Assembly (NCBI GenBank): GCA_044892525.1
Contig: CM097885.1
Coordinates: 189,720,001 to 189,784,000, forward strand
Source of the DNA: Schmidtea polychroa
Lineage: Eukaryota
DNA: 64,000 nt
Direction of reading: 5' to 3'
In this document: in pieces, positions 25,659 to 64,000 of the stretch
Layout of the letters: each line of letters begins with the position of its first letter
Position numbering within the stretch: the stretch's first letter is position 1
Translations under genes and position numbers: made by a program
Notes under the pieces: generated by a model
What the model saw: only the letters and a program-made list of their open reading frames with translations
What the model was told of the DNA's origin: nothing
Database searches by the model: none

Positions 25659-25903
25659 TGTGAGGAAGATTTAATTATTAGCACAATATAATATTATAAT
25701 AATAAATTACATCTGAATTATTACTATTAAGAAATTAACATATACATATATTAAAGTATTATATTCGTATTATATTATGGCGTACATAATTATTATTGTT
25801 ATTTAGAAATGCTTAATCGTCAATTTAATGATTTGTTTAGTCAAACCGATATTGTTATAATTTTTGAATATAATTTGAATTCGACTGCTAGTTTTATTTA
25901 ACA
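25659..25903 (+). repeat. 5' LTR
   Basis: TGTGAGG...TTTAACA, same sequence as 30248-30492. Confidence 0.97.
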
Positions 25904-27066: not shown

Positions 27067-27086
27067 AAGGTAATAATGATGATTGT

Positions 27087-40266: not shown

Positions 40267-40519
40267 CCAAAATTTTAAATATAAAACATAAATTTCAACT
40301 ATAAAATATAAATTAATCCAAAATTTTAAATATAAAATATAAATTTCAACTATATAATATAAATTAATCCAAAATTTTAAATATAAAGTATGAATTTCAA
40401 CTATGAAATATAAATTAAACCAAAATGTTAAATATAAAATACAAATTTCAACTATATAATATAAATTAATCCAAAATTTTAAACATAAAGTATAAATTTC
40501 AGCTATAAAATATAAATTT
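40267..40519. repeat. Minisatellite, ~5 copies of a 51-bp AT-rich unit
   Basis: ccaaaattttaaatataaaa...ttcaactat...aattaat starts at 40267, 40318, 40369, 40420, 40471. Confidence 0.85.
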
Positions 40520-41910: not shown

Positions 41911-42267
41911 ATGTCCTATTCTGACAGTGGTAGTAACGAAGCAGCCGACCGACAGATGCTTACACGACTCCGGACACGGTACATATGGTACCGTATCCAT
42001 GATTGGAACCGGGGCTTGGACCTCGACAACTGGGGCCCAGTAATCAGGAGTGGGCCGGAACCGGACGCCCCAGCGTGGGTAAAAACAGAGCCCACAAACG
42101 ATTTTTTGCAAGAGGCCCGTGACCGAGCGGCCATCGAGGTGGAAGCAGCCCAGATGCGATTGAGGAAAATCGACTTGCAAATCCGGGCAAACAAGGAAGG
42201 GAAAACCGTAGAGGACCTAGAGGAGGCCGAGACAACCCCGCGGAAGAGGGGAAGGCCTCGCAAGTGA
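41911..42267 (+). CDS. 118-aa orphan ORF with coiled coil and C-terminal AT-hook
   Basis: GC-rich island; ATG preceded by ttcttttgtag and TATAAAG at about 41880; ends TPRKRGRPRK. Confidence 0.55.
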   Translation: MSYSDSGSNEAADRQMLTRLRTRYIWYRIHDWNRGLDLDNWGPVIRSGPEPDAPAWVKTEPTNDFLQEARDRAAIEVEAAQMRLRKIDLQIRANKEGKTVEDLEEAETTPRKRGRPRK

Positions 42268-42488
42268 CCGACCTGACTCATCATCAAAAAATTTTTTTTT
42301 TGCAATTAGCATCAGTTATGACTTAATTAAACTTTAATTTTAGTGACGAACAATTTTATTCCTTTCAATAAATTATCTTATGAATTGCGTGCTTAATGTC
42401 TGAGACTATGTTTATTTATAATATTGATCTTATTATATAATAGAATGAGCGTTATGCTGCAGGAATGAATCATTGAATTTTTATCTAG

Positions 42489-42919
42489 TGTTCAAACTAC
42501 TTGAAAATTTGCGAAAGGACAGGGAAGAAGCCCAAAAACAGGCCGAGGAGCTCCGCATACGAGTAGACAAGCTCAAGGGACGGTGCCGGGAACTAGAAAG
42601 CACCTGGTTTAGTCCCGAGGATATGAAAAAGAAGGTGGCGCAGGTCCTTCAACTGCAGACTCAAGCCGCGCAGGATCAGATGGAGATCCGGGCACTGAAG
42701 CTCCAGCTCCGCGCGTTAGAAACCGAGCGAAATGAACAAGTAGTTCACGGAGCCGCCATAAGCCAAATCCGGCCGTTGACTGTGGAACTAGCAGCAATAT
42801 ACCCTTCGGCCGCGAAAGAGAAACCCAAAAGAAAGCGGTTGGGACGGAACATCCGGGAGAAGTTAAAAAAGGCTAGGTTAGCCGAGTATGAGCGACAAGA
42901 AAAATCTACACCAGTGTAA
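42489..42919 (+). CDS. Coiled-coil/basic ORF, possibly a spliced exon
   Basis: GC-rich open frame (LRIRVDKLKGRCRELE...KPKRKRLGRNIREKLKK) after acceptor-like tttttatctag at 42488; first in-frame ATG is internal. Confidence 0.4.
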
Positions 42920-43326
42920 TTTCCGCGATGTGAACAGTCACTTATGCTAGATACACTGAGTTTTCCTTTTTTTTTTGTTGTTTATTGTTAATGTCTAAAT
43001 ACAAATTTAGTTAAATTAATGTATGAAGTATGTTGTTTGCAAATGTTGAGTGACTGAAAATCGAGGCGTTGAGAGTTGGGAAAACAATTTCGAATAGGGG
43101 ACCGGAGAAAATCGGACACATACCTTCTAACGGTAGTCCGTGAACCCGTGGAGTACTCGACAATTATAGTGCTTTGATGCGCTCACTTTTTGTGGGTACT
43201 CAACCCTTGGTACAGTACCAACGTTGATCACTCAACGGGTACCAAGCGGAAAAACAATGTTGTATTTTGGGTTACGCTGGTAACAGCACTCAATCATTCA
43301 ACCACCAGTAACCCACCATACAAATT

Positions 43327-43347
43327 TGGGGGCTCAGCCGGGATTTG
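43327..43347 (+). promoter_or_regulatory. Primer-binding site, tRNA-Pro
   Basis: TGGGGGCTCAGCCGGGATTTG versus the classical tRNA-Pro PBS TGGGGGCTCGTCCGGGAT(TTG): 19/21 identity. Confidence 0.85.
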
Positions 43348-44041: not shown

Positions 44042-44524
44042 ATGGAATCAACCGGCTACATTACAAAGAGACTCGAAAAATTCGTAGATTTAACACACAA
44101 TTCGTTACAACGGCTAAATCGCAAAGCGGAACAATTGGTGAAAATCCAAGACGAGATGAGCTTGAAGCCAAGACCGCAAGCTGAGGACATATGTGTAATG
44201 ATGAAAATAGCAACACCTAATGCAGAATTGACCACTAAAAGAGTCTATCAAATTCAAAATTTACGATTAGATAATGCCAAATTCAACATCAAATGGCAGG
44301 AGATAATGATGAAAATGGGAACGATCGAAGAAGAAATTAAAGAAGCAATCGAACATCAAGTTAAAAATTTTAGAAAATGCTTCATATGCAGAACCAATGA
44401 AATACGAGTAATGACGATCCCATGTGGTCATTTATGTTACTGCGAGAATTGCGCAGAGAAAATTAAACGATGCAACGTATGCGATACGAATGTTAGAGAG
44501 AAAATTGTAATATACCTCCCGTAA
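44042..44524 (+). CDS. Coiled-coil plus C-terminal C3HC4 RING (IAP/MDM2-type) ORF upstream of gag
   Basis: CFICRTNEIRVMTIPCGHLCYCENCAEKIKRCNVC followed by VIYLP* at the extreme C-terminus. Confidence 0.85.
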   Translation: MESTGYITKRLEKFVDLTHNSLQRLNRKAEQLVKIQDEMSLKPRPQAEDICVMMKIATPNAELTTKRVYQIQNLRLDNAKFNIKWQEIMMKMGTIEEEIKEAIEHQVKNFRKCFICRTNEIRVMTIPCGHLCYCENCAEKIKRCNVCDTNVREKIVIYLP

Positions 44525-47216: not shown

Positions 47217-50200
47217 ATGACAGACGGAATTCCAAATGTAACAGGGCTAACGGACCCACCGGAAACAAGTAATGTGCACGTCAACATTGGAGAATTCAGA
47301 GAGAAATTTCGAGGAGAGCCATTCGATGGAAATATAAACCAGCTGGAAACGTTTATAAAGGAATTCGAAGTATACATTACGATATGTCACTGGCCAGATA
47401 TAGTCGTACGAGAACGAATACCCCTATATCTAAAGGGAAGCGCCCAAGATGTATACTTGGAGGCGAAATGTGATGCAACAAAGTTGAGAACGTGGAAAGA
47501 GATCAAGGAGTTTTTAATAAAAACATTCGGTACCGAAAAAGAGGGAAATCGAAAAATGTTAGACTTTCTGCATCGAAAGCAGAAATATAACGAATCCAAC
47601 GCACTGTACGCATGCGAATTGAGACGACTAGCACGAGAAGCCTTCGATTCAAATCAACCAGTTCCGGAAGACAAAATAATAGCCGTATTCGTAGATGGCA
47701 TGAAACGAGAGGATATACGAGCAACCTTGGGATGCCGAGCACCAGAGACGCTGGAAGAAGCACTAAAAATCGCTAACAAATGTGAAACCTACTTAACACC
47801 AATACAAGTAGCAGCAATGACAGCAGCTCCAGCAGCTCCAGCGGCAACAGCAACAACCACAAACAACCAAGTCAATAATGCAAATCCAGTAATGAATCAA
47901 TTCATCCCAGGATCGCAACAGTTGTTCAAAACCCCACAAACGAGGAACCAAGACAATGGAGGTAATATTCAAAATTTTACTAATAATTTCAGGAACAACG
48001 ACAATCGAACGTGCAACATATGCCAACGATCAGGGCATTGGAGCAATGAATGTTATAGAGCAAGGATGTGTCAAAAGTGTGGGAGAAGAGGCCACACGGA
48101 AAACATCTGCAGAGTTCCCACGATGTCTACGGGCAGAGGAGGAACTAGAACCTGCTACAATTGTAACCAGCCTGGACACATGGTTAGAGAATGCACGATG
48201 AGAGCCAAACCAAATCAACCAGGATCAAACAACCCAATTCAGAACACGAAAATCAACCTCATGCAGGAAATCGAACAATTAAAAGATATGATCCAACGAA
48301 TACCGGTTAATAATCAACAACAACGAATCAACATGATGCAGAGCACCGAGGAAATCCGGAAGCAACCAAGTAAGCAACAACAAGATCAACAACGAATCGA
48401 ATGGCAAAGATTGCAAAACGAAGAAGCCAGAGAAATTCAAGAAAGATGGAAACAACGGGAAGCGAATCCCGGAAGAATAAATATGATGAGGTTAACAAAT
48501 AAAGAGGAATCGCACACTGCGGAGCAGTGTGTTAACAACGAAGGGAGTGATCTGATAAAAACGACGAAAGAAAATGAGATTGATCCACAGACAAAATTGA
48601 GCAGCGAAGAGAAAATACAATTGATTAAAGAATTTACCAAAGAGGAGAAAGAAAGGAGACAAAAGAAAGATGAGAGCCAAGACGAATCAAAAAGCAATGA
48701 GATAGTTACAAAAAATCGAATTCAGAGGGTACTACTACAAAAAATCGAAGACAGAATCAAAAACGAAAACCCTACATTAACTAAGGAACAAATCAAAGAA
48801 AAAGTGAAAGAGCATTGGTTCAGGAAAAATGAGTGGTTCGAAAAGAAAGAACCACATACCAAAGCTAAAATAAACATGTTGAGACAAATGCGGAGTGATC
48901 AGACGGATCAGGAAGATGAGAAAAGTGAGGTGAGTAGCCTGGGAGGCGAATTATTTCAGTCAAGTGAGGAAAACAACGAACCGAAAACACCTCCAAACAG
49001 TGAAACACCTCAAAGTAGTGATAGGAGTGAAAATGATGACATGAAATCAATGATAGAAAAAGATGATGAGGAGATATTTGAGGAAATTTTCGACACAGTA
49101 ACAGAAATAGAGCGGAATGAGAGCTACATCAACGAGCTAACATATAGAAAATGCGTAAAACTTATAACTCAAGTATACCAGTGTGAAGGAGGTATAATAA
49201 CGGCAGCATGGAAAGATTTAGCAACAAGATATAAAGAGAAACTAAAGGAAGCAGGCCCAGATCAATATCAGGTAAGTATTCAACACCCCGAGATTCAGAT
49301 ACAGACTATTGAATTAAAAGGAACAAATACCGATGAACTGTACAACTGGGTACAGGAAAAAATGGGAACGAGCCATAAAAATAAACAATTATATGTCGAT
49401 GGTTACAAAGTTAAAAGGGGCATACATTTGGTAGATGCGATGATATGGCCCAACGAAACTAACATCTTAACCTTAGAGAAAACCAGAGACGACGAATCAG
49501 TGGCAGAAATGTTCCAGAAAATCCAACAAGTGTTTAACAATGAAGTGGAACCAGAATTGGAAAAGATCGAACGAAAAATAATGAAAGAAAACCAAATAAT
49601 CTTGGTTAAACAAGCTATCGATCAGGCAAGAAAATATATTAATAGACTGAGAGAAAGATGGCCACAACTAATGAAACAATTTGTCAAAGACGTACGAGAC
49701 ACAGAAATTATGAGATTCGAAGACGAACGAGCGACAGAATTGATATCTAAATACGGAGAATACGAGAGAACCAAATGCGAACGAGAAACGATAAAAATAA
49801 AGGTGAAGTTGCCAAATGAAGAGAAACAAATAATAGAAGTTGACCCCGATTGCCAAGTTGACGAGTTAGTGCAAATCATAGATCAAGAGATCATCCAAAA
49901 AGCTCGAGAAAATAGTGAGGATGGAATGATCGAAGATGTGATAATAATGTACAACCGACATATGTTAGAAAGAGGAGACCGAACTGTAATTTACGAACTA
50001 GGAATCTGGGAAGATGGAGCCGTCATCAATATAATCGCGATGGATGAGCCATCGGGTGGACACAAAAACGCCACCAAAACAGAGCAACAAATTAAAAGAT
50101 TCCAATGGGGGATGAGAGTAAAGATGGATCGAATAATAGATATTTATAACCATTGGCTAAAGGATGATAAACTAAAAGTAGCAGCCTTCAATGACGAAGA

Positions 50201-53200
50201 TTGCAAACTGATACCATGGAAAAAAGTGTGGATCGAAAGGGAAGCTCGATGGGATTGGGAGCAGCAAAAGTTGGAACCAAATTGGATAGATAATATACCT
50301 GAGGAGATCGCAGCAGTATGGGTAAGAGAGAAACCAATCGATGCTTACCAGGATATATTACCACAAGAATTCCAAAATGAGTTACAATCAGGAGAAGATG
50401 AGGAGATACGAGAACCGGTAAGGTTAGCACCATTCACGTGGAAAATTGAGAATTGGATGGAAAAGATAAAATCAGCAAGGGAAGAGAAAATCACACGATT
50501 AGTAAGTCCACCGTTCTACTCAGGATTAGGTGAGTACAAGATGAAATTGCGAATATACCCGAACGGAGATGGGGTAGGAAAAGGAAGTTATGTGTCGGCA
50601 TTCTTCATCATCTGCAAAGGGAATTATGACGATAAGGTACCAGGGCCGTTTAGCAGAAAGGTAACGATAGCGATCGAACCACTGAAAGATAGCCTTAACA
50701 TACATAAAGAAACAATGAAACCAGACCCAAGGAGCACATGCTACCAACGACCAACAACATCAGAAAATACCGCTTCTGGGACGTCTAAATTAATACGTCT
50801 AAATTACATTGAGAATGAACAATCAATATTTGTGAAAGACAATGCTATCCAGATAAGAGTAGAAGTTGAAACAGAGCAAGAAATGAACCAACGACTGAAC
50901 ATACCAGAAAATCAACCGAGAATCTGTATGATGAGGAGAAGAGTGCCTGATTCAGGATATCTACCAATAGACGCCGACGCAGATGAGGAGGAAGCAGCAA
51001 CATTGTTGGAAGCACAAAAATGTAAGGAATTGATGGAGATATTACAAAACGGGGCGAAAAATCGTCGACGAGCGGTAGTAGAACTACCAAAATGGATAGC
51101 CGAATCATGCAAAAGGATTCAAAACCTACGAAAAATCGTTAAAGCGATTGAAGAATATCGACGGGTATACGTATGGTACCCTGAACAATTTGGTGAAATC
51201 ATTCGGAAATGGAAACAACAAGAGTGGGCCGAAAACTTACCTGAGAAATATCAACTAAAAATATTCTTGCCAGATTTTGAACCAATGGAAAAGGAATTCT
51301 ACTCAACAGCCAAGGTCAGGGAAGTTAAAAAGAGAATACCTTATGAACTCCCATTCCACTTACAACACGAGGGACGATCATTAGACGACGATATCGAAAT
51401 TGGTGTGACACCACTCCAAGGAGAAATTGTGAACAGATTAACGGTGAGTAAAATTACAGGGAGAGAATTAAGAAGAAGAGAAATAAAGCAAAAATCATCT
51501 ACACAACAACCAGGAAGTTTAGACACACCAGAAGTTCCAAATGCGGTTAGTGAAGTAACGATCGAAACAACGGGAGAAGACGAAATACTAGACGAATTAC
51601 AAGAGATAGTAGAAACAGGCGAGATAATGAGAGCATCGCAATCAGGAGATCTATTCATCGACGAAGGTGAACCAACAACTGATGATCTAGATGGATTTGT
51701 TTGTGCGCAAAGACAACCAGTGGAAACGACAGAAGCCGAGACGGATTTAGATAAGGTGGGGGGAAGTGCCAATAAAGATGTAACCACAACCGATGAATGG
51801 AGTAACTGGAGAGTAGATCCAGGAGCGACCACGTCAAAAGATACAACTTACAATCCGCCAAAACGGAAAGAAACCGGAACGGCTATGGATCGACGAACAA
51901 GAGGAAGACCAAAAACAGATAAAGCAGAGGTGGAACCAAAATCCAAAATGCAAGCACAAATGGAACAGGTAAAAACTAAAATGGATAAACTAAGCGCATT
52001 AGTAAAACAAGTCAAAGTGAAAACAAACGTCCGGGAACAAGGGACACGATGGATAAACGACTTATTAGCTAACATGTTAGCGTTAGCAAATCCAGATGTG
52101 AAAAGAGTAATGAGGAAGGATAATATTCCGACCGAAGCCAAACAATTATGGGCGGTATTGAAACCGATAATAATGAAAATCATGGATAATAAAATTCGAT
52201 TAACGTTAAAGGATCCCGTGGAACTCAGATTAATTGTGGAACATCTGTTAAGCAGATCAGAAGACCAAAATCGATATTTAGTGGGATTAGCGTATTTGGT
52301 GTATAACGTCATTGGTCAATATAAAAAACGAATGCCAAAATATAACGCAACTGGTTATGAATTCACAGTAACAGAAATAATCAAACAATCAATAGAACCA
52401 TATATACTTGAACAAGGGGGATGGAGAAACTTCATCGAATCAACTGGGAAGAAAGATCAAACGGAGATGATGCAAGCAAAGTTACGCGATTTGCTAACGG
52501 AATTCGAAGGAACAATCAATATGAACGACCCAAGAGCAAGCCGAAAGGGAATAAATGCCATAATAACCACGATATTGATATGGATGATGTGCATCAAAGG
52601 AACGGAGTCATTTGCAGTATACGACTGCGACAACATAAAAATCCATGAGAAATATTCATTAAAGGATACGGAAGACTGTAAAGCGGCAAACCCAAGAAAA
52701 TTACAAACAGTCATGGCATCAGTCTCGTATAACGTATATCAAGAAGCAGATTTCATCAAAACCATGGTCCAAGAATGTACGGTAACCAGAAAGATATTTG
52801 CACATCACTGCGGTTCATCCTCCCACTCAACAATCATAGAACCGGGATTGGAATCGACAGTAATATTACTATCAAGAGAGGAATGCGAGGAAGGATTCCG
52901 ATCAGGGAGAATCCACTTAAGGCAAGGGATTGAAATTGCTGCAGAACCAGGAAAAATAAAAACGACTCGCGTGTATACGGCGGGCAGAATCACTAAAGGA
53001 GATGGAACATGTGAGACAGGAACGTACACCTTGAACGGACAACTGGTTAGTGGAGTGGTCGTGATAGAAAGCTACGAAGCTAAATTAGAAAGGTATCAAG
53101 GTTATTTCGACCCTGACACGCAAGCAATGAAGAAATACCCAAGTTGTCTCGCATCAGATCGATCATGTTCAACCGGAATGTCAACTCTGGTATACCATGC

Positions 53201-55667
53201 GGATCAGAAGGTATGTCGACTAATGTTGCTCAAAACAGCAATATTCGAAGAAATCCAAGCGAAAGTATACAGTGAACCAAAAGGAGAAGCAGAAAAACGA
53301 GCGATGGAAGAGTTGAGAGCAAGGAAAGGATTCAGAGAAGACGTAATAACCTCGAAATTGGAATCGGAAGTAACACCCACAGCGATAATCTCCAAAGACG
53401 ATGGAATAGGAATGAGGTTCATAAAGAACAAAATGGTGAGTAAATGCGATGAGATGGTGATCAGCACCAATTATAAAGGGATCTACTTGTCGCGGAGAAC
53501 CCTAGCAAATGCAGTCGGAAGACTAAGCGAAAAGGATGTCAAACTATATTTATACGCTAATAATAAGATGGATTTCTTATATCACAGAGGATTAACATCC
53601 ACGGAAAAAGTCTACCATGATCTGTTAAGAAACGATTGCCTGCTCAACAAAGAAATACTGAGAACCAAATTAGCAATGGCGATTACAAATCCAGATAACG
53701 CAATTCCGCTACTACCATTACAGGAAGGATATTTCGGACGAATCGTGGGTGAAGTGATGTACACCTACCAATGCAAAAAGATAATGGCAAGATTGCCAGA
53801 AAACCCTACAATACCAAGAGATAAGTGTGCAAACGAACTCGAAATTATTCACGAAGGTAAACCCAGGTTTGTGCAAGCAGTCACTAGGGTAATGAACCCG
53901 GTAGGGTTTCAACCAAACCTGTTTAATTGTAGTAATGCATATGGACCAATGTATGAAAAAGAAGATGGACAATGGGTTCAATTCCCAAGTAAAACAATCG
54001 TAGTAACACCCAAGAAATTTGGATTGACGGAACTAACAACAGAACTAGAGTTCAAGCCGATAGACGTATCCCAGAGTGGATTATATACACCAAAAGATCT
54101 CGAATCAGCAAGAGCCCACCTGTTATTCCCAGCGCAAAGACAAGCAATCTTATCAAATATAGTGACTATTTCTGGAGGAAATAATTATGGGGAGAGCCCG
54201 AACTACGAGCTATTATTATCACCAAGTCACTACCAACAAGCAACAGCAAACATGATGAAGGCTATGTGGGGTAGATTTTTAGTATTTGGCCAAATGATGG
54301 CAGGAATACTCGGAATTATTCTGATAATACAAATAGTTAGAGTGATACTAACTCAGATGCTAGCATGTTTTGACATCTATAAGCGCGAGAGAAAAGTAAA
54401 TTGGAAACTTGCAATTGGATTCTTACCGTTCTTAGCGAAAACAATGGTGTTACATGGACACTCAAAGGATATTCATCGAATAAAAAGATTGTTGAAAATA
54501 TTAACGCAAATGAAAGGGACAGACGAAGAAGTCGGACGTAAGTTCAAAGTGATAATGAGATTAGAAGCAGAAAGAACTCAAGAGAAAGCGAAAGGAACCG
54601 GGAAGTGGAAAAAGTGGATGAATCTCAGACGAGACGATGATAGTGATGACAATGATGATTTCGACGACGACGATAATAATCAAGGAGGGGTAACGTTGAT
54701 AAACAAAAATACAGCCACTTGGGAAAACGAAAAAATGAAACCATGGGGATCACCATATTTACAGGCACCAACTAATGGACCAATGCGACGACCAGGAACA
54801 ATGAGAGAACGGGTAAGAATGGGAACCGGGAGATTACCCGTACCAAATATTTACCCAACGGCGTATGAACCAAATTGGGCAGCAATGGACCCAACAATGA
54901 TCAAGCCAATTAAAAATGTGGGGCAAGAGGTGGAGACACGAACGATTGCGGTATTGCAGACACCAGCAGGACCATCGTTAACTATCACGGTCGAAGTAAA
55001 CGGAATAGAGATGGATGCAATGATTGATACCGGAGCAAATATCTCAGCAATAAATATGAATATGCTACCAGGAAGACTATGGCCATGCATTGAGGAGACA
55101 ACCATGGATGTAATAACATGCAGCAAACAATCCATAGCGGTAGTAGGAAGAGTATGGTCAACGATCGAATACAAAGGGGTTAAAGTTACAACGTACCTCG
55201 CAGTCATCAGACAGCTAAGCGTATCATGTATAATTGGAACAGATGTAATGCCGGAATTATTGAAAGAAATTGTGATTGATTTGAGTTCCATGAAATTAAA
55301 AGATAAAACTGGACAGATATGCACAATGAGAACAGAAGTGAGATGCTCCGAAAAAATGATAATACCAGCACGTACCCAGACAATATGTTATGTCAAGGTC
55401 GATAACGAAGCCAAAGGAGATATGATATTTGAACCAAGTCAAAAATTCGAGAAGAGAAGGGAGCTGCCATTGGCAAGAGAAATTGTCAGTATAAATGAGG
55501 ATAACGAGATACCCATCAACATCACCAATTTTGATGAGGAAGATAAAGTAATCTACGAAAACGAGAGACTTGGAAAACTCACACCAATGATGAACATTGA
55601 GCTGCCGGAGATAAAAAGCGAGGGAGCAGACGAAAAAGAATTATGGACCATCGATAGCGAACTCTAA
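47217..55667 (+). CDS. gag: Giant polyprotein part 1: Gag (3 CCHC), 2 ubiquitin-like, MATH, Bcl-2-like, fusion glycoprotein, aspartic protease
   Basis: First ATG 47217 (track start 46995 is TTG); FDGNINQLETF gag; knuckles 48012-48197; MATH 50427-50873; YILEQGGWRNF at 52401-52433; YDC/HCGxxSH glycoprotein 52548-54450; MIDTGANIS at about 55026. Confidence 0.92.
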   Translation: MTDGIPNVTGLTDPPETSNVHVNIGEFREKFRGEPFDGNINQLETFIKEFEVYITICHWPDIVVRERIPLYLKGSAQDVYLEAKCDATKLRTWKEIKEFLIKTFGTEKEGNRKMLDFLHRKQKYNESNALYACELRRLAREAFDSNQPVPEDKIIAVFVDGMKREDIRATLGCRAPETLEEALKIANKCETYLTPIQVAAMTAAPAAPAATATTTNNQVNNANPVMNQFIPGSQQLFKTPQTRNQDNGGNIQNFTNNFRNNDNRTCNICQRSGHWSNECYRARMCQKCGRRGHTENICRVPTMSTGRGGTRTCYNCNQPGHMVRECTMRAKPNQPGSNNPIQNTKINLMQEIEQLKDMIQRIPVNNQQQRINMMQSTEEIRKQPSKQQQDQQRIEWQRLQNEEAREIQERWKQREANPGRINMMRLTNKEESHTAEQCVNNEGSDLIKTTKENEIDPQTKLSSEEKIQLIKEFTKEEKERRQKKDESQDESKSNEIVTKNRIQRVLLQKIEDRIKNENPTLTKEQIKEKVKEHWFRKNEWFEKKEPHTKAKINMLRQMRSDQTDQEDEKSEVSSLGGELFQSSEENNEPKTPPNSETPQSSDRSENDDMKSMIEKDDEEIFEEIFDTVTEIERNESYINELTYRKCVKLITQVYQCEGGIITAAWKDLATRYKEKLKEAGPDQYQVSIQHPEIQIQTIELKGTNTDELYNWVQEKMGTSHKNKQLYVDGYKVKRGIHLVDAMIWPNETNILTLEKTRDDESVAEMFQKIQQVFNNEVEPELEKIERKIMKENQIILVKQAIDQARKYINRLRERWPQLMKQFVKDVRDTEIMRFEDERATELISKYGEYERTKCERETIKIKVKLPNEEKQIIEVDPDCQVDELVQIIDQEIIQKARENSEDGMIEDVIIMYNRHMLERGDRTVIYELGIWEDGAVINIIAMDEPSGGHKNATKTEQQIKRFQWGMRVKMDRIIDIYNHWLKDDKLKVAAFNDEDCKLIPWKKVWIEREARWDWEQQKLEPNWIDNIPEEIAAVWVREKPIDAYQDILPQEFQNELQSGEDEEIREPVRLAPFTWKIENWMEKIKSAREEKITRLVSPPFYSGLGEYKMKLRIYPNGDGVGKGSYVSAFFIICKGNYDDKVPGPFSRKVTIAIEPLKDSLNIHKETMKPDPRSTCYQRPTTSENTASGTSKLIRLNYIENEQSIFVKDNAIQIRVEVETEQEMNQRLNIPENQPRICMMRRRVPDSGYLPIDADADEEEAATLLEAQKCKELMEILQNGAKNRRRAVVELPKWIAESCKRIQNLRKIVKAIEEYRRVYVWYPEQFGEIIRKWKQQEWAENLPEKYQLKIFLPDFEPMEKEFYSTAKVREVKKRIPYELPFHLQHEGRSLDDDIEIGVTPLQGEIVNRLTVSKITGRELRRREIKQKSSTQQPGSLDTPEVPNAVSEVTIETTGEDEILDELQEIVETGEIMRASQSGDLFIDEGEPTTDDLDGFVCAQRQPVETTEAETDLDKVGGSANKDVTTTDEWSNWRVDPGATTSKDTTYNPPKRKETGTAMDRRTRGRPKTDKAEVEPKSKMQAQMEQVKTKMDKLSALVKQVKVKTNVREQGTRWINDLLANMLALANPDVKRVMRKDNIPTEAKQLWAVLKPIIMKIMDNKIRLTLKDPVELRLIVEHLLSRSEDQNRYLVGLAYLVYNVIGQYKKRMPKYNATGYEFTVTEIIKQSIEPYILEQGGWRNFIESTGKKDQTEMMQAKLRDLLTEFEGTINMNDPRASRKGINAIITTILIWMMCIKGTESFAVYDCDNIKIHEKYSLKDTEDCKAANPRKLQTVMASVSYNVYQEADFIKTMVQECTVTRKIFAHHCGSSSHSTIIEPGLESTVILLSREECEEGFRSGRIHLRQGIEIAAEPGKIKTTRVYTAGRITKGDGTCETGTYTLNGQLVSGVVVIESYEAKLERYQGYFDPDTQAMKKYPSCLASDRSCSTGMSTLVYHADQKVCRLMLLKTAIFEEIQAKVYSEPKGEAEKRAMEELRARKGFREDVITSKLESEVTPTAIISKDDGIGMRFIKNKMVSKCDEMVISTNYKGIYLSRRTLANAVGRLSEKDVKLYLYANNKMDFLYHRGLTSTEKVYHDLLRNDCLLNKEILRTKLAMAITNPDNAIPLLPLQEGYFGRIVGEVMYTYQCKKIMARLPENPTIPRDKCANELEIIHEGKPRFVQAVTRVMNPVGFQPNLFNCSNAYGPMYEKEDGQWVQFPSKTIVVTPKKFGLTELTTELEFKPIDVSQSGLYTPKDLESARAHLLFPAQRQAILSNIVTISGGNNYGESPNYELLLSPSHYQQATANMMKAMWGRFLVFGQMMAGILGIILIIQIVRVILTQMLACFDIYKRERKVNWKLAIGFLPFLAKTMVLHGHSKDIHRIKRLLKILTQMKGTDEEVGRKFKVIMRLEAERTQEKAKGTGKWKKWMNLRRDDDSDDNDDFDDDDNNQGGVTLINKNTATWENEKMKPWGSPYLQAPTNGPMRRPGTMRERVRMGTGRLPVPNIYPTAYEPNWAAMDPTMIKPIKNVGQEVETRTIAVLQTPAGPSLTITVEVNGIEMDAMIDTGANISAINMNMLPGRLWPCIEETTMDVITCSKQSIAVVGRVWSTIEYKGVKVTTYLAVIRQLSVSCIIGTDVMPELLKEIVIDLSSMKLKDKTGQICTMRTEVRCSEKMIIPARTQTICYVKVDNEAKGDMIFEPSQKFEKRRELPLAREIVSINEDNEIPINITNFDEEDKVIYENERLGKLTPMMNIELPEIKSEGADEKELWTIDSEL

Positions 55668-58600
55668 ATGAAGATGAAAAGGAACAACTCAGACAACTAC
55701 TGATTGAGTTTAAAGATATTTTTGCGGCTTCAGATTTGGATCTGGGTACTAGCGATGTAACTCAACACATTATACCATTAACAGATGAGACACCCATAAC
55801 CTTGAGACCATATCGATTGGCTGAAGCACAAAAAACGGTAGCAGAGGAAGAAGTACAAAAGATGTTAGATGCTGGTGTAATAGAACCTAGTTGCTCACCA
55901 TGGCAATTCCCAGTAGTAATGGTCAAAAAGAAAGATGGCACACAGAGATTTTGTATTGACTATCGGAGGTTGAATGCAGTAACTAAAAGGGATACGTACC
56001 CACTGCCAGACATAAACGAAATGTTACAGATGTTGCATGGAGCAGCATACTTTACATCTTTAGATCTAAAGAGTGGATACTGGCAAATTAAAGTTAAAGA
56101 GGAAGATAGAGAAAAGACAGCCTTTACCATCGGAAAAGATTTATATCAGTTTAAAAAGATGCCATTTGGATTAACAAACGCACCTGCTTCGTTTCAGAGA
56201 TGTATGAACTTTGTGACACACGGGATCAAACAATGTATGGTGTATATTGATGATCTGTTAATTTATTCAGGTACTTTCGAGCAACACTTAATCGACATCA
56301 GAAACATATTCATAAGACTGAAACAATGGAAGCTGAAGTTGAAACCGTCAAAATGCGATTGGGCAAAGGAGAGAGTCACATTTTTAGGACACATTGTGTC
56401 GGCAAAAGGAAAAGAACCAGATCCGAGAAACGTTGAGAAAATAAAGAATTGTCCGATACCAAAAACCGTGACTCAGGTGCAAGAATTTCTGGGATTATGC
56501 GGTTACTACCGCAAGTTCATCAAAAATTATGCAACTATCGCAAAACCAATTCAGGAACTAACAAAAAAGGATACTCCATTTCTGTGGGAAAGGGAACAGC
56601 AAATAGCGTTCGAATCGCTAAGAGATAAATTAATAGCCTCGCCTATCTTAATCCACCCAGATTTCAAAAAGCCTTTTTTATTAGCAACTGATGCAAGTGG
56701 ATACGCATCAGGAGCTGTGCTAGGACAATGGGATGAGGAGAAAAGAGAAAGAGTCATCGGATATTATAGCAAGACGTTCAAAAAGCACGAAAAGAATTAC
56801 TCAGTCACAGAAAGAGAAGCTTTAGCAATAATTCAGGCGATAAAACATTTCAAATATTTATTATGGGGGCACGAGATAATTATTACTACGGATCACCAAC
56901 CTCTAGTTTGGTTGGGCCAACATAAAGAAGCATCTAGCCGATTAATGAGATGGGCAATGCAATTACAGGAATATTCCCCATATATCAAGTTCAAGTCAGG
57001 AAAAGCAAACGCAAATGCAGATTGCATGTCGAGATTCGTATTTGAAGAACTCATGGATCATGACGTCAGGCGAATATGCATGATAATCGCGGAAGATATC
57101 GATTTTACCAATCTAAGGAACGAACAAAAGGAAGACAGCGAATTGAAACTAATAATCGAATTCCTGGATAAAAACGATATGAAAATATTCAACAACGAGG
57201 ATCGATTGAAAGAACATATGGAGAAAAATCGTCACAGATATACAATCGAGAAAGAATGGCTATTGGTAATGGATGGCGACAAACGACTGATGTGTCTACC
57301 AGAAAGTAGACGGAAAGAAATTATGATTCAATACCACGACGGTAAATTGGGCGGACATATGTCAGCCAAGAAAACAGAAGCAAGGCTCAAACAGAAATAT
57401 TACTGGCCAAATATGAGCGATGACGTGAAAGAATGGATTAAGAACTGCTTGATATGCGCAACCAGAAAAACAACGGGCAGTAAACTAAAGCCGCCATTGA
57501 AACCAATGCCGATACCGCCAGAACCGATGACAATGATTGCAATGGATGTAGTTGGACCACTACCAGAGACTAACAGTGGAAATGTGTATATATTGGTAAT
57601 AACTGATTATCTGACTAAGTTCCCTGAAGCATTTGCGATGCCAGACCAAAAAGCACGAACGGTTGCAAGGATATTAGTGGAAGAGATCTGCTGCAGATAT
57701 GGAACACCAAAACAAATCTTAACTGACCAAGGAACTAATTTCATGAGCGAGATAATAAATGAAGTGACAAATTATTTTAGAATTGCCAAATTGAGAACCT
57801 CACCATACCACCCGCAAACGAATGGTCAGACAGAAAGATTTAACGGCATACTAATAGACATGATGTCCAATTACGTGAGTAAACATCAAAAGGACTGGGA
57901 TGAATATATTAAGTTGTGTCTAATGGCTTATCGAATGTCAATACACTCAGCAACGAAAATGAGTCCGTTTAAACTCATGTATGGAAGGGAATGCAACATG
58001 CCGATGGATCTCGAATACCAACCGCCAATCTCACAATATATGGAAATAGATGATTATGTGACCAAGTTCAAGGAGAGAATGCAAGAAATATGGAAAACCG
58101 CAGGGATGAACATCCGATTCAACCAAGAGAGTTATAAGGAATTACATGATAAAAAGAAGAACGTGCAAAACCATCAATTTAAAGTCGGAGATTGGGTTAT
58201 TATAGAAACACCCGAATTAATCCCAGGAACAGCAAAGAAATTACAACGTAATGGCAGAGGGCCATATGAAATCATCCATGTAAACGAGAACAACGCTAGA
58301 GTGAAGTTGGTTAACAATCCACTAATTAGACCCATTTATGTGAATACATGTCGATGCAAAGCAGTAGCGAAAACTGCCACTAAAGACCCAGAAACAAGGA
58401 GGATAATTACGAGATCACAAACAAATGCCACAACGGAACCAGAAGTAAGCGGTAGATTAACTAGATCACAGACAAGACGGATATTCATGTTGAGAGGAGA
58501 AACAAGCAGCAGCGCCCATAAAGGAACTGAAGCAGAAAGCGAAGCTGACGCAATGGCAAGGAGCCAAGCAACATGGAATATGACAGTAAAAATAGCACGA

Positions 58601-61243
58601 GAAATTGTACCAGAATGGGCCGATATAACCAATAAATACCAAGTATTGGGCAAACTAATGTTAGTAGCAGAAAGATATGCGAAAGGACGAAGATATGCCG
58701 AAGGATTACAAATACCGACTCAAATATATGAACTAATCCGGAGATTACCAATCATGTTCCTAACAAGTGATTTGAGTAATAACTGGCCAATCCATCATGC
58801 AGTGAAAGCAGGACAAGAAAAACGAGCTTTAGAGATTATACGAATAATGGAAAACTGCAAACAATCAACAAACGTCAAAAACAGTAAAGGAAAAACTCCA
58901 CTGATGAAAGCCATAGCAATAGGCGCATCAAGAGATGTACTCAGAGAATTATTAAGAACGGGATCCACGTTGAAAGAAAAAGACAACAAACAACGAACCG
59001 TATTACGTTATGCCGTCAGGTCAAAAAGACCTAGTATAGTGAACTTTATCACAGGAAATGCAACAACCGAAGAAGCCGAGGTGTTGGGACAGAGCATTGA
59101 ACCAATTCTGGAAGCCATCAGAGGAAACTTAGACAGAACCGCAGCAATGTTAATCAAATGGAAACAAAACGAATTAAGAGCGGAAGTAATTGATATAAAT
59201 CAATTCCAAAACAACGAAAATATCGTACTAAGAAGCGCCATATACTCAAGACCACCAATGCCAAAAACCATTAAAGCAATATTACAAAGAAATAGAGCAG
59301 AATTGACAGGTAATTGGTGGAAATGCACAAAAGCACATACGATGAAAAAGCAACTAGAAATACTAGTGTGGGAATGGCACCGAAAACAACGGAAATATCA
59401 AGGAACCAAAGAAGAACGAGAAAGTATCCACAATGATAAAAAAGAGATAATTAAAAAATACGAAGAGATGATCAAAGCGACAAATGTCGAGGACGACATT
59501 TTTGGGAAAACCCCGGGTGAGAGGAATGACGACGATGACGACGACGAAAGGATGGGGGATAACGATAACAACCCAGAGGAAAACGACAGAGAACAAAATC
59601 CGGAGGGCGGAGAAACAACGGATGATGATGAGGAGTTGGAAGAAGACGAAGATGACCAATGTCGAGGTGAAGATCAAGGATTCGACAAAACAGAAAACAA
59701 AAAACGAAAGTCCCCACTACATAGCATAGTGTTTCGAAATCAAATCCAGCCAATCCTACTACAAAGAATATTTATAATATTAACATCTATCTGCTTAACG
59801 GAAACAAAAAATATGAGAATCGTAAGAGAAGCTTTCCAAGAAGGCGAAGTATTTATGATAAAAGTCAGTGATTACGACGGTAACGCCGTCGGAATATGTG
59901 TGCAACTAATGGAAGGAACAGGAGTAAGTTGTGATTTCAGATCGATAACAAAAGGAAAGATCTTTAGTAGCCAAAAAAGAGACCCCAGGCTATGCGGAGA
60001 TTATGACATCTGTAGGGACATAACAACAGAGGAAATGGAACTAGAAAGAGCCAATGAAACCGGAGTACATTTTCAACTTAACATTCTGGAAGAAGGTATC
60101 GAAATAGAGGATAAAGGGAGTCGATCAATTACACATGTATGCATCAGAGAAGACAGAGATATATGCATAGTAACTGATATGACACAGGATCACAAATTCT
60201 TCTGGGGAGAGGTCAAACCAAATACCCCTACTGTGGTATGCGCAGGAACACAAGGGATAGTAGTGTGTAAAGGAACAAGAACTGCACCAAGAAAAGACAA
60301 ACCAAGGAGTATGGCAATTAAACAAGGTCCATTGACGGAGAAAACAACCAAGAAGCCCAAGAAATCAGTTAGTACAAAAACAACAACAGAGCTAAATCGA
60401 AGCGAATTAATAACAACAACAACATGGATTAACGAAGTAATTAAAGACGAAAGACGGGAAGTGCAGATAACTATTAACCTCAACAAGAAAGGTGAAGAGG
60501 TAATTACAGTCAAAAACCAAGAAGGAGAACCAATCATAAGGATATGTGTAATGGATAAGACGGGAATAATCGACTGTACAACAACACCGATAGACAAAGG
60601 TACAGACGTTAAAATGGAGACAGGGAAACGGAAAGAACGATACCAAGTATGTATCCTTAAGAAAGGAAGAGGAGCCAGCGTATGTCAACCAATAACTCGA
60701 CAAAAACCCCAATTAATAAACATACCGTGGATACCCCGAGATCAGGAAGGGGGAGAGAAACGGGAAAATCACAGTCACCTAACAGAAAAAGAGAAGGAAC
60801 GATTACATCAAGCATTCAAGAAAATCAAAGCACCAGAAACAAACACCACAGGTAGTACAATATTAACGACAGTAAAAACAAATAATGGAACAACGATAAT
60901 CACAAAGATGATATGGATAACTAGCGCGATAGTAAGCACGATAATAGCGTTAGCAATGATTCAGTGGATAAGAACCACCAAAAGATGTAAACAAAAACCG
61001 GGAAACCGAAGAAAATGGCCCAAAGTGGAAAAATTTGAATACGGTATTCCAACCGAGAATCTGAATCTAGAAGAATACGAGGTGGTAGAGGACCCCGGAT
61101 CCAGTGGATTGTGGATGTCGGAACTACCAAGAATACCCACACCCAACGAATGGACACACGAAGTCGATATATACCGATTAACGGACGAAAGATATGGGGG
61201 GATGCGCACGTTGCATTCCGGCCCCATGGCGACACTGGTATAA
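55658..61243 (+). CDS. pol: Giant polyprotein part 2: RT, RNase H, integrase, ankyrin repeats, acidic tract, signal peptide/ectodomain/TM
   Basis: Frame open from 55658; YIDD 56243-56254; LATDASG; HDGKLGGH...CLIC; MDVVGP, TDQG, NGQTER; ANK GKTPLMKAI 58778-59160; TM MIWITSAIVSTIIALAMIQWI about 60907-60970. Confidence 0.92.
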   Translation, partial: RTLNEDEKEQLRQLLIEFKDIFAASDLDLGTSDVTQHIIPLTDETPITLRPYRLAEAQKTVAEEEVQKMLDAGVIEPSCSPWQFPVVMVKKKDGTQRFCIDYRRLNAVTKRDTYPLPDINEMLQMLHGAAYFTSLDLKSGYWQIKVKEEDREKTAFTIGKDLYQFKKMPFGLTNAPASFQRCMNFVTHGIKQCMVYIDDLLIYSGTFEQHLIDIRNIFIRLKQWKLKLKPSKCDWAKERVTFLGHIVSAKGKEPDPRNVEKIKNCPIPKTVTQVQEFLGLCGYYRKFIKNYATIAKPIQELTKKDTPFLWEREQQIAFESLRDKLIASPILIHPDFKKPFLLATDASGYASGAVLGQWDEEKRERVIGYYSKTFKKHEKNYSVTEREALAIIQAIKHFKYLLWGHEIIITTDHQPLVWLGQHKEASSRLMRWAMQLQEYSPYIKFKSGKANANADCMSRFVFEELMDHDVRRICMIIAEDIDFTNLRNEQKEDSELKLIIEFLDKNDMKIFNNEDRLKEHMEKNRHRYTIEKEWLLVMDGDKRLMCLPESRRKEIMIQYHDGKLGGHMSAKKTEARLKQKYYWPNMSDDVKEWIKNCLICATRKTTGSKLKPPLKPMPIPPEPMTMIAMDVVGPLPETNSGNVYILVITDYLTKFPEAFAMPDQKARTVARILVEEICCRYGTPKQILTDQGTNFMSEIINEVTNYFRIAKLRTSPYHPQTNGQTERFNGILIDMMSNYVSKHQKDWDEYIKLCLMAYRMSIHSATKMSPFKLMYGRECNMPMDLEYQPPISQYMEIDDYVTKFKERMQEIWKTAGMNIRFNQESYKELHDKKKNVQNHQFKVGDWVIIETPELIPGTAKKLQRNGRGPYEIIHVNENNARVKLVNNPLIRPIYVNTCRCKAVAKTATKDPETRRIITRSQTNATTEPEVSGRLTRSQTRRIFMLRGETSSSAHKGTEAESEADAMARSQATWNMTVKIAREIVPEWADITNKYQVLGKLMLVAERYAKGRRYAEGLQIPTQIYELIRRLPIMFLTSDLSNNWPIHHAVKAGQEKRALEIIRIMENCKQSTNVKNSKGKTPLMKAIAIGASRDVLRELLRTGSTLKEKDNKQRTVLRYAVRSKRPSIVNFITGNATTEEAEVLGQSIEPILEAIRGNLDRTAAMLIKWKQNELRAEVIDINQFQNNENIVLRSAIYSRPPMPKTIKAILQRNRAELTGNWWKCTKAHTMKKQLEILVWEWHRKQRKYQGTKEERESIHNDKKEIIKKYEEMIKATNVEDDIFGKTPGERNDDDDDDERMGDNDNNPEENDREQNPEGGETTDDDEELEEDEDDQCRGEDQGFDKTENKKRKSPLHSIVFRNQIQPILLQRIFIILTSICLTETKNMRIVREAFQEGEVFMIKVSDYDGNAVGICVQLMEGTGVSCDFRSITKGKIFSSQKRDPRLCGDYDICRDITTEEMELERANETGVHFQLNILEEGIEIEDKGSRSITHVCIREDRDICIVTDMTQDHKFFWGEVKPNTPTVVCAGTQGIVVCKGTRTAPRKDKPRSMAIKQGPLTEKTTKKPKKSVSTKTTTELNRSELITTTTWINEVIKDERREVQITINLNKKGEEVITVKNQEGEPIIRICVMDKTGIIDCTTTPIDKGTDVKMETGKRKERYQVCILKKGRGASVCQPITRQKPQLINIPWIPRDQEGGEKRENHSHLTEKEKERLHQAFKKIKAPETNTTGSTILTTVKTNNGTTIITKMIWITSAIVSTIIALAMIQWIRTTKRCKQKPGNRRKWPKVEKFEYGIPTENLNLEEYEVVEDPGSSGLWMSELPRIPTPNEWTHEVDIYRLTDERYGGMRTLHSGPMATLV

Positions 61244-61389
61244 CAAGAGGAGGAGCTGTTGTAAATAATGTATAAATGGAATGATAAAAGTAGTGATAAT
61301 AGTAGTATGTACAAAATAAAAATAGAAAAATTAAAACAATATGTAGAAAAATCAAAAACAAGTATGATGACCATGTATTATAAATAGGA

Positions 61390-61819
61390 ATGAACCAGAG
61401 AAACGAAGAGCAGGAACACCCAAATGGGATACCACATGTTGTTGAAGTAAGAGAACAGCCGCTTATGAATGTACATCCAGTAGACATGATGGAAATGAAC
61501 GTGCCAAACCAGCCGAGTCAGCCAACAGGATCCATGTGGAGGGCACAGTGTGAATTAATGACCCAATTGACAAATCAGACTCAAGAGCACTGGGTACGAA
61601 ACCAAACGGCGTTGATAGAGAGTATTAATAGAAATACAACACCAAATAATCGCGCAACTGGAATATAATAACAATCAGTTAATAAGCCAAATCAGATGGC
61701 AAGCGGAAGAAATTAGAAGGTTGCATGAAAATCGACAACATGATGAGATTGCCAGTTTAGTCGAGTGGATGACCGGACTGCCAGGAACTGAAGAACCGGA
61801 CTCGACGGTAGATGTATAG
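61390..61819 (+). CDS. Orphan ~142-aa ORF with probable +1 frameshift near 61617
   Basis: Track ORF 61390-61668; the +1 frame is open 61619-61819 (RVLIEIQHQIIAQLEY...DSTVDV*) and ends at the same post-stop motif as neighbouring genes. Confidence 0.5.
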
Positions 61820-61908
61820 GAGAGAAAGGAGTGAAATGTAAATAATCCTGTAAATAAATAGAGTTATAATCAAGTAGAAATCCCAAGATTAAAAATCATC
61901 ATTGTAGA

Positions 61909-63332
61909 ATGCAAAACAAAGCGGAAGAGAACCGGAGAGAAGCAGAGGAACAAAAGATTAACTATGAATTGATGAGAAAATATCAAGCCAAGCCGGACGA
62001 GTTCGAAGAGAGGCTATTATGTGCCGATGCAGCATGTAGAAGACTACTGATTGGAGCAAGTCAAACTCGATGCGGGTGTAGATTATGCCGAGGGTGTGAT
62101 ATAAGATTAGCCAAGCTAAAGAGAGAAACTTGTCCAGGATGTGGAGAAGCATTTAAGTTGGTTCCCACTGGTACAATACCGGATAGAGCAATGAACCGAG
62201 AAATCAGAGAAGTGAAAATAAGATGCACCCAAAGGTCATGCGAATGGACAGGTCGAGTAAAGGAGTTAAGAGCCCATACAGACGTATGCGAATATTTAGA
62301 ATTGGAATGCGAAGCATGCACGGTAAAGTTTTTACGAAAAGAGAAAACCAAACATAAAGGGGAATGCGAAGCGCGAACGGAAAAATGCGAATTTTGCGGA
62401 GAAACTGCTAATTGGAGAGAAATCGAAATGGAACATCGAAACGCAGTAGAAAGACGGATTTGCGACGAATATACAGGGAGATGCCCAAACGAGTGTGGAG
62501 AAATTAACAACGTCAGTTAAATGAACATTGGGAGATATGCACGAGAAAAGCAATAAAATACCCAATGGTGACATTCGACTGTAGAGCACAATTACCAGCA
62601 GAAGAAATGAAGAAGCATGTGGAGGAGAACACATTCGAACACATGCAAAAGATGATGAGAGCAATAGAGTTAACAGCAAGAGCAATTGAAGACGTCAAAG
62701 ACGAACTCAAATCACATAAAATCATGATAAAAGAAATGCTGAGCTCACAGGAAAGCTTCGAAAATACGAGAGAAGCCGTAACACAAAGGATGTTGAAATT
62801 AGACGACAAATTAGTCGAAGTAACTAAATTACAAACCAAATGGACTACAAAGGAACTGACAACAGAGGAACTACCAATACTACCATACATGTGGAAAATC
62901 CAAGGAATAACGGAAATAATGGAGCGAGCAAAGCAAGGAATCCAGACAACGATAGTGAGCAAACCATTCTACGCCAAGAAACATGGATACAAGATGAAAT
63001 TGAGATGGTTTCCAAATGGAGAGGGAAAGTTTAAAGATCGGTGCGTGTCCATATATATGCAAATTTGTAAAGGAGATTTTGACGACCTAATAGCATGGCC
63101 ATTCCGACATAGATTAAAAATATCTCTCTTAGGATCAAAAAAGACACATATAATGTGCTGTCGAGCATCCAGTCCAGCATGGAATAAACCGATTACAGAG
63201 GTTAATCCTGCGGTAGGAGTAGCAGAGTTTATGCAGCTATACCAATTTAATGAAGGGTCCTACATAGAAAAGGATACTATATTCTTCCTAATCGAACTAG
63301 ACGAGGAAGGACCAACAATAGAAATACGATAG
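61909..63332 (+). CDS. Intronless full-length TRAF-like protein (RING, TRAF zinc fingers, coiled coil, MATH), split by a 1-nt frameshift near 62506
   Basis: C-x4-C-x11-CGC-x2-C-x2-C...CPGC; CPNECGEI continues in the -1 frame as QRQLNEHWEIC...MKKHVEEN; MATH WKIQG...FYAKKHGYKMKLRWFPNG...KGDFDDLIAWPF; ~474 aa if repaired. Confidence 0.88.
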
Positions 63333-63472
63333 ACGGATAGAGGGGAACTGTAAATATTTTGTAAAAACGATGTAAAGTAAATATAAAGTTATTGTATACA
63401 GTAAAGTAACTTGCCAAAACCATAAAAATTAGAAAAAGAAAATGTAAAAAGAAATGATGAAATTTATTATAG

Positions 63473-64000
63473 ATGATTAATCAAGAGAGACCGAATATCC
63501 GAAAGAAAACGATCACAATGAGAGAGGAAGAGGACAATATGTCACCTAGAGAAAGAGTGAAGGATGCGGAAGTCAGCAAAACAAAACCAAGTAGTTACAC
63601 ATATTATCGAAGAATGGGAAACGATTATAATTTGGTACATGAAAATTTGAAACTGGGAGATAATGAACAATTCAGATGTGAGAAGCAGAGATATCTGTCA
63701 TTTGAACATCAGACCATTTTCACCAAGGAACAGAGCCGAGCGCTAGCACGCGACGGTATTTTCTTCTCCGGAAAACCAGAGATACCCGATCAAGTAACGT
63801 GTCGTTTCTGTAAAGGGAAATTAGCAGAATGGAAAAAAGGAGAACACCCAAAGGAGGAACATCGTAGACGATTTCCAACTTGTCTATTCGTACTGGGATT
63901 TGATGTACACAACAAACCGGAAATCAAATACGAAGCCTTGGAGAAATTGAAAACTGAAGACGAAAAAGGAGGGAAAATGAGCATCGCGATAACCAGAATC
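63473..64000 (+). CDS. BIR-domain (IAP-like) protein, 3'-truncated by the window; absent from the ORF track
   Basis: 176 open codons; EKQRYLSF...LARDGIFFSG...DQVTCRFCKGKLAEWKKGEHPKEEHRRRFPTC = CX2CX16HX6C BIR at about 63680-63892. Confidence 0.9.
   Translation, partial: MINQERPNIRKKTITMREEEDNMSPRERVKDAEVSKTKPSSYTYYRRMGNDYNLVHENLKLGDNEQFRCEKQRYLSFEHQTIFTKEQSRALARDGIFFSGKPEIPDQVTCRFCKGKLAEWKKGEHPKEEHRRRFPTCLFVLGFDVHNKPEIKYEALEKLKTEDEKGGKMSIAITRI

Follow-up and report, generated by a model that had tools for sequence, protein, structure and literature searches.

A giant gypsy retroelement of the Burro type carries a cargo of cell-death and signaling domains that is kept by selection and likely raises the death threshold of cells where the element is active; we give this reading a probability of roughly three in four, with an IAP as the likely main effector. 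The element, about 35 kb long, begins within the window analyzed here, a stretch of 64,000 nucleotides from Schmidtea polychroa (NCBI GenBank assembly GCA_044892525.1, contig CM097885.1, positions 189,720,001 to 189,784,000 of the forward strand), and runs past its end. The original prediction, made from the letters of this stretch alone, held that Bcl-2-like, BIR, two TRAF/MATH, RING and ankyrin domains stand in one element, and all of them do lie within one pair of long terminal repeats (LTRs).

An element with such a cargo, its domain list and the idea that it acts on apoptosis are already known. Giant gypsy-like LTR retrotransposons named Burro1/GYPSM1 and Burro2-4 are described from planarians in PMC6431247, which follows Jurka 2007 and Grohme et al. 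2018; its Burro section gives MATH, BIR, ankyrin and a BCL2-like motif, an in-frame env and an open reading frame (ORF) of 4,873 residues, and suggests that the element interferes with apoptosis and ubiquitination in its host. Burro elements over 30 kb are also mentioned in PMC11410931. The window element is likewise longer than 30 kb, with long LTRs and a high copy number, and it shares a polyprotein of about 4,800 residues (4,873 published, 4,791 here), a Gag with three CCHC knuckles, the MATH, Bcl-2-like, ankyrin and BIR domains, and an env in frame between Bcl-2 and protease, with protease, reverse transcriptase, RNase H and integrase in that order. It is a Burro-type element by every layout feature tested, matched to the published description rather than to a reference sequence, so that the subfamily is not fixed. 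According to PMC13465017, Lee et al. 2026 found that the BIR-RING region of Burro1 (B-IAP) protects planarian stem cells from caspase-mediated apoptosis. The reading of the cargo as a means of host-cell survival, which the original prediction offered as an inference, is therefore not new; it is supported by that work and by the purifying selection in all modules described below. The Burro section of PMC6431247 makes no mention of the loss of the BH1 motif NWGR, selection across copies, acceptor-like starts or smaller Bcl-2-bearing relatives, and no further paper on the cargo of the element appeared in the literature listings; we claim no novelty for the degenerate BH1, the selective constraint or the acceptor-like starts.

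Purifying selection on the cargo

The element is present in hundreds of copies in the genome: used as a DNA query, the second MATH gave 298 candidates (40 scored, 98-100% identical) and the Bcl-2-like segment gave 682 (150 scored, 97-100% identical). Selection was assessed in 41 copies, which comprise the window copy and 40 of these 150 scored loci, taken at roughly every fourth row. Single-base variants were counted per codon column, those seen in a single copy being kept apart from those shared, and multi-base changes were excluded. Over all cargo, the shared variants came to 110 nonsynonymous, 242 synonymous and 0 stops; reading in the wrong frames, as a control, reversed the ratio (270:49:12 and 269:53:20 for nonsynonymous, synonymous and stops). 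Every cargo module is under purifying selection. All eight lie below neutral, each with a P of 0.0022 or less, and omega spans 0.06-0.30: the first MATH (22 nonsynonymous to 28 synonymous shared variants, omega 0.30), the Bcl-2-like segment (9 to 32, 0.11), the ankyrins (8 to 34, 0.09), the two halves of TRAF (0.17 and 0.22), the BIR (14 to 20, 0.29), the middle of the IAP (9 to 33, 0.10) and the IAP RING (1 to 6, 0.06, from only 7 variants). Shared stops are absent from all 16 modules counted, every stop being a single-copy event. Four shared frameshifts are found in the first of two coiled-coil ORFs that follow the IAP gene. As a control for having picked the copies by their Bcl-2-likeness, 15 further loci were drawn by BIR matches; 7 had the Bcl-2-like segment at the expected offset (the other 8 were dropped), and in these the segment shows 3 nonsynonymous to 22 synonymous variants. 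Such selection acts on replicating element lineages, and a benefit to the animal is a separate, second step.

The window copy itself has two frame breaks, near 55660 (between protease and reverse transcriptase) and near 62510 (inside TRAF). These are not family traits, because other copies keep long open frames: 48 of the 150 scored copies have one of at least 4,770 residues. Protease and reverse transcriptase share a frame in 29 of the 41 copies and do not in 11, the window copy included (the motif is absent in 1); the RING and MATH of TRAF share one in 32 and are split in 3, again with the window copy (motif absent in 6); BIR and RING share one in 30 and do not in 3, with 8 untestable. The breaks of the window copy, together with the finding that 18 of 37 testable copies are broken somewhere from the first MATH to the ankyrins, could suggest that the domains are neutral passengers from host RNAs, now decaying. 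The original prediction had itself named neutral decay across copies as evidence that would tell against it. With the dN/dS check now run, decay is refuted for the family, since in each cargo module the shared variants lean strongly toward synonymous changes and include no stop, and we find the passenger explanation scarcely credible.

Modules of the cargo

The IAP gene (63473..64651, plus strand; the window holds 63473..64000) encodes 392 residues with a BIR, a degenerate BIR and a RING, and it is open in the window copy. The BIR (63701-63892) matches Pfam at E 2e-14 and also matches NAIP and the BIR2 of XIAP; the RING (64481-64648) matches cIAP1 at E 1.4e-10, and the best 10 of its PDB matches are all IAP RINGs (cIAP1/2, XIAP). 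The BIR and RING of the original prediction are thus both present, the RING lying just past the window end. Between them the second, degenerate BIR aligns with a BIR of cIAP1; compared with B-IAP of Burro1, this additional BIR is visible in the window element, for which the evidence given here is anatomy and selection only. The BIR zinc ligands (C-x2-C...H-x6-C) are retained in 35 of the 41 copies, as is the IAP RING, and in 5 copies the BIR/RING region does not fall within the stretch fetched. Baculovirus IAPs are virus-borne and have a layout of two BIRs plus a RING. The IAP described here shares that layout, but its carrier is an endogenous LTR retroelement. Word-index searches with the C-terminal half of the IAP and with full-length TRAF gave no matches.

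The TRAF gene (61909..63332, plus strand) lies in two pieces in the window copy. RING and zinc fingers (61909-62520) match TRAF6 at E 3.7e-10, with TRAF2 also matched, and coiled coil and MATH (62565-63332) match Pfam at E 2e-27. The RING-zinc finger-MATH protein that had been predicted is therefore present, although in this copy it is split near 62510; RING, zinc fingers, coiled coil and MATH, the set that marks a TRAF adaptor, stand in one protein in 32 of the 41 copies. A host-type TRAF elsewhere in the genome (L172), likely a cellular gene, is a single frame of 470 residues and is colinear with the element TRAF from RING through zinc fingers and coiled coil to MATH (29% identity over 462 residues, E 3e-69), and both have the CGC variant of RING. 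This likeness would fit an origin of the element TRAF from the host. The original prediction took the intronless state of the modules as consistent with capture through mRNA, but that state proves little, because L172 is also a single frame and any LTR element passes through RNA.

The first MATH, the Bcl-2-like domain and the ankyrins, presented in the original prediction as separate modules, are not genes of their own; they are parts of the gag-env-pol polyprotein. The first MATH (50433..50867, plus strand), of TRAF type, matches Pfam MATH_2 at E 3.5e-26 and is 44% identical to the MATH of L172. The ankyrin repeats (58778..59146, plus strand; Pfam Ank_2 E 2.4e-8) number three by Pfam, with a probable fourth by eye, and are followed by an acidic stretch (59498-59656) and then a hydrophobic segment (59744-59794). 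IkB proteins have six or seven ankyrin repeats and a DSGxxS degron. The piece has three to four repeats, no DSGxxS was found on reading its sequence, and no IkB-type protein is among the best 60 of 91 PDB matches of the ankyrin region, all of which are generic ankyrins. An IkB mimic that retains an NF-kB factor in the cytoplasm might be argued for from the acidic, PEST-like stretch, from the purifying selection on the ankyrins and from the seven divergent RHD genes reported for a planarian genome in PMC13563047. The same source gives no clear NF-kB homologue in planarians, however, and the hydrophobic segment after the ankyrins may tie the piece to a membrane; with the repeat count, the PDB matches and the missing degron, this makes the mimic, and with it the IkB-like and NF-kB part of the original prediction, very unlikely. 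A search of the genome with the RHD profile PF00554 returned 0 matches (16 for a T-box control) and was too insensitive, given the seven published RHD genes.

The Bcl-2-like domain and related elements

Judged from sequence, the divergent Bcl-2-like domain (52044..52451, plus strand; BH2 GGW present, BH1 NWGR absent) is the weakest of the named modules. On its own the window segment has no Pfam match and reaches only the BH2 region of Bcl-xL in the PDB at a sub-threshold E of 0.5-1.3. A scan of the genome with the Pfam Bcl-2 profile, in which 150 of 909 candidates were scored, pointed to a second element family; there, tblastn matches are continuous from the Bcl-2-like segment through env, and a scan with an env profile led to two more families with a Bcl-2-like slot. 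These families, F2, F3 and F4 (L095/L145-L147, L148-L150 and L154-L155), are gag-env-pol elements of about 13-18 kb with repeats of 0.8-1.1 kb; they have about 30% identity over env, and the Bcl-2-like slot lies just before env. Against the PDB, an alignment of 14 Bcl-2-like segments from the four families has Bcl-2/Bcl-xL among the best 60 of 142 matches, with E values of 1e-5 to 1e-4 and a best of 1.4e-5; against nine other Bcl-2-like proteins of the genome its hhalign probability is 95.9%, and that of the window sequence alone 66.9%. Pfam Bcl-2 is matched by 10 of the 14, the window member not being among them. By these profile comparisons, Bcl-2 homology of the segment is well supported. 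The predicted Bcl-2-like module thus stands on profile homology and position, and falls short in its lack of a Pfam match of its own, of NWGR and of a confident fold.

NWGR is the BH1 motif that lines the BH3-binding groove of pro-survival Bcl-2 proteins. It is present in other Bcl-2-like loci of the genome (L086 and L090), and all 41 copies of the window family have a different string at its position. Two fold predictions for the domain came out without confidence (predicted local distance difference test scores of 45.0 and 44.4). With this low-confidence model, Foldseek found no match at E 0.001, and a wide structure search gave unrelated helical proteins at a best Z of 7.0, with no Bcl-2 chain among the 50 rows listed; from such a model these results weigh neither for nor against a Bcl-2 fold. 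An Atlas search with the segment returned nothing at 0.9 or more. One ankyrin protein, from 1.84 billion representatives, matched the segment on the GGW word and was taken as spurious. The Bcl-2-fold proteins of poxviruses and herpesviruses are divergent Bcl-2 homologues, some of them without BH motifs; unlike these, the domain described here lies within a gag-env-pol polyprotein.

Directly between this domain and env is a hydrophobic segment (52551..52595, plus strand; Kyte-Doolittle 2.2 over 15 residues), which is predicted to serve both as the membrane anchor of the Bcl-2-like piece and as the signal sequence of env. Hydrophobic segments precede env also in F2, F3 and the relatives P0003-P0006. 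The polyprotein modules (ubiquitin-like, MATH, Bcl-2-like and ankyrin) could serve particle assembly, membrane anchoring or ubiquitin handling rather than act on host cell death, as their production is tied to that of Gag and env, and as in each of the four families examined the Bcl-2-like slot immediately precedes the env signal and NWGR is missing. Yet five outside relatives with the same gag-env-pol order have no Bcl-2-like segment, so that it is not needed for the layout; moreover the domain retains BH2, and a role in the particle leaves the free-standing IAP and TRAF genes uncovered. We consider such a role unlikely.

The Bcl-2-like domain is more widespread among the env-bearing families than the other cargo, and this distribution hints at a layered capture. 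The order of capture is not fixed by the reverse transcriptase tree, whose base is unresolved and in which 4 of 7 inner branches are open.

Other Bcl-2-like loci were met in the genome. Seven near-identical Bcl-2 matches with canonical NWGR lie within 0.9 Mb (G000:C4:89948841-90831822, L083-L089) and represent either a local expansion or an assembly duplication. A second, unrelated class of multi-copy element has a short Bcl-2-like ORF, found about 15.5 kb past the window end (L002:5550-5834, minus strand) and also at L107-L110 and L112; it matches Pfam Bcl-2 at E 1.3e-7 for L107 and 0.033 for L002. L107 has a TBP-like ORF as well (E 2e-14), and L110 has a fragment that by eye resembles a family B DNA polymerase, with no such Pfam match. 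This class is likely of Polinton type, and two unrelated element classes in the genome thus carry Bcl-2-like genes.

Element anatomy, expression and proposed action

By self-BLAST of the window and the two following stretches, the element is 35,090 bp long. Its 5' LTR (38475..43318, plus strand; 4,844 bp, with TG...CA ends) and 3' LTR (68662-73564, counted past the window end; 4,903 bp) differ by 28 mismatches, with two blocks at 98.0% and 99.7% identity, and are young; a 4-bp target duplication, ATAT, borders the element. The 5' LTR is followed by a primer-binding-site-like sequence (43327..43347, plus strand), putatively of the tRNA-Pro type. A 22-mer over its complement occurs 1,555 times in the genome, and the places listed belong to a tandem array of 475 bp. 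No tRNA gene was detected by ARAGORN in the 64-kb window. An accessory ORF (44042..44524, plus strand; 160 residues) encodes an IAP/MDM2-type RING (Pfam zf-C3HC4_3 E 4.9e-12) that is 35% identical to the RING of the IAP over 62 residues.

In the window copy the polyprotein is in two parts on the plus strand. The first (47217..55667) contains Gag with its CCHC knuckles, the ubiquitin-like, MATH and Bcl-2-like domains, env and protease; the second (55862..61243) contains reverse transcriptase, RNase H, integrase, ankyrins, the acidic stretch, two hydrophobic segments and a short tail, the order of the enzymes being that given by Pfam. The env-like fusion glycoprotein (52620..54383, plus strand; Pfam Monjiviricetes_fusion PF24664 E 1.3e-68) lies in frame after gag and before pol, flanked by the Bcl-2-like domain and protease, and has a transmembrane segment at 54300-54350. 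At the end of the polyprotein (59744-61243) a hydrophobic segment, a cysteine-containing stretch and a second hydrophobic segment are followed by a tail T/S-x-V/L, which we take to resemble a class I PDZ-binding motif; endings of this type are common to F2, F3 and the relatives P0002 and P0003, and are not seen in P0004-P0006. Beyond the window, 3' of the IAP gene, come the two coiled-coil-like ORFs (532 and 255 residues) and then a receptor-like ORF (67319-68305, counted past the window; 328 residues), which opens with a signal-like sequence, has six cysteines in its N-terminal part and continues through a transmembrane segment into a 60-residue tail. This last ORF has no useful match in Pfam, the PDB or Atlas. 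A PxEE in its tail is a putative TRAF-binding motif; modeled as a complex without an alignment, the TRAF MATH and this tail reached a score of 0.06, which gives no answer on binding. Elsewhere in the window, the list of ORFs points to a broken gypsy element of ordinary type and to more gypsy fragments (25903-30280 and 13910-15226), and the stretches 1094-2062 and 16085-18437 contain what we take to be host-like exons, of an EF-hand calcium-binding-type protein and a Serinc-type membrane protein.

Two patterns, both defined after inspection, bear on how these products may be made. The five-residue motif [RKQH][IV][NCF][MLT][MLI] occurs at 8 places, including the end of the protease and the borders between RNase H and integrase and between integrase and ankyrins, and it brackets the stretch of ubiquitin-like and MATH domains. 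In addition, 7 of 8 accessory ORFs (starts at 41911, 44042, 61390, 61909 and 63473, and three beyond the window) have a TAG 0-3 nucleotides ahead of their ATG, whereas the figure is 41 of 727 for other ATGs and 14 of 159 for those in spacers and LTR. Wherever the start could be located, which was in 36 of 41 copies for TRAF, 32 for IAP and 34 for the first coiled-coil ORF, the TAG is retained; four of the seven TAGs are out of frame, and the three in-frame cases could partly reflect the definition of an ORF. The pattern suggests that the accessory ORFs may be expressed from spliced or trans-spliced subgenomic RNAs, with the TAGs as candidate acceptors; spliced-leader trans-splicing is known in flatworms (PMC8629364, PMC12582326). 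Contigs of three runs that were merely guessed to be RNA covered 30, 26 and 30 of 30 bins and are not counted as evidence.

From this anatomy we infer that intact relatives would make one polyprotein of about 4,790 residues, which the element protease would likely cut at the recurring motif, releasing a piece with ubiquitin-like and MATH domains, a Bcl-2-like piece anchored in a membrane, and the ankyrins as a further piece; for TRAF and IAP, translation would likely start from spliced RNAs of their own. In line with the published account of Burro1, the BIR-RING protein would bind to caspases or their regulators and ubiquitinate them, and TRAF and MATH may tune receptor-to-kinase survival signaling. 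Host TRAFs are tied to cell survival in PMC7586133, in which knock-down of Smed-TRAF gives more cleaved caspase-3. The Bcl-2-like piece is predicted to be tail-anchored on the endoplasmic reticulum (ER) rather than free at mitochondria, because the 15-residue hydrophobic segment directly precedes env, and it would act at the ER membrane, probably not through the standard BH3 groove. The mitochondrial pathway to which the original prediction assigned it is thus a weak assignment, as NWGR is lacking and the hydrophobic segment likely sends env to the ER. A more elaborate and quite speculative proposal is that the element encodes a death-receptor circuit of its own, in which TRAF, IAP and the receptor-like protein would be made from acceptor-spliced subgenomic RNAs and an older Bcl-2-like domain that lacks NWGR, with the env signal as its anchor in at least four families, would act in a non-BH3 manner; the set would have been built in layers, the Bcl-2-like domain first and TRAF, IAP and ankyrins later.

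Several observations weigh against a cargo that raises the death threshold. NWGR is absent from 14 of 14 aligned element sequences in four families, and the Bcl-2-like domain lacks a confident fold. The window copy is unable to make reverse transcriptase or full TRAF in one frame, and one frameshift in the BIR is shared between copies. The cargo is less constrained than env and the core enzymes (omega 0.00-0.03), and it is dispensable for an element of such layout, because the three related families show no TRAF, IAP, MATH or ankyrin match (one copy of each of F2-F4 examined). Finally, according to PMC8532177, BURRO1 RNA rises in differentiated cells on loss of SMEDWI-2, and BURRO1 RNA interference gave no improvement of the smedwi-2 phenotype, data that fit a repressed parasite.

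These last results also bear on the somewhat doubtful alternative that the cargo mainly serves a selfish, virus-like cycle, with TRAF, MATH and RING jamming innate signaling (the TBK1 or MAPK branches) for expression and spread of the element, and with any gain in regeneration incidental. This overlaps with the explanation preferred here and differs in who gains. It would suit an env that is in frame and strongly conserved (7 nonsynonymous to 83 synonymous variants), the young LTRs, the repression of BURRO1 by the PIWI pathway (PMC8532177) and the induction of planarian TRAF genes through TBK1 on wounding (PMC13563047); it is at odds with the report in PMC13465017 that the Burro1 IAP region improves stem-cell survival and regeneration.

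With the threshold-raising cargo as the preferred reading, the additions made here are modest: selection acts on every cargo module and not on the IAP alone, BH1 has degenerated in the Bcl-2-like domain, there is little ground for the NF-kB label, and the accessory ORFs have a candidate splicing signature. A retroelement in which selection maintains regulators of cell death is relevant to the survival of planarian stem cells under stress and to the boundary between parasitism and mutualism.

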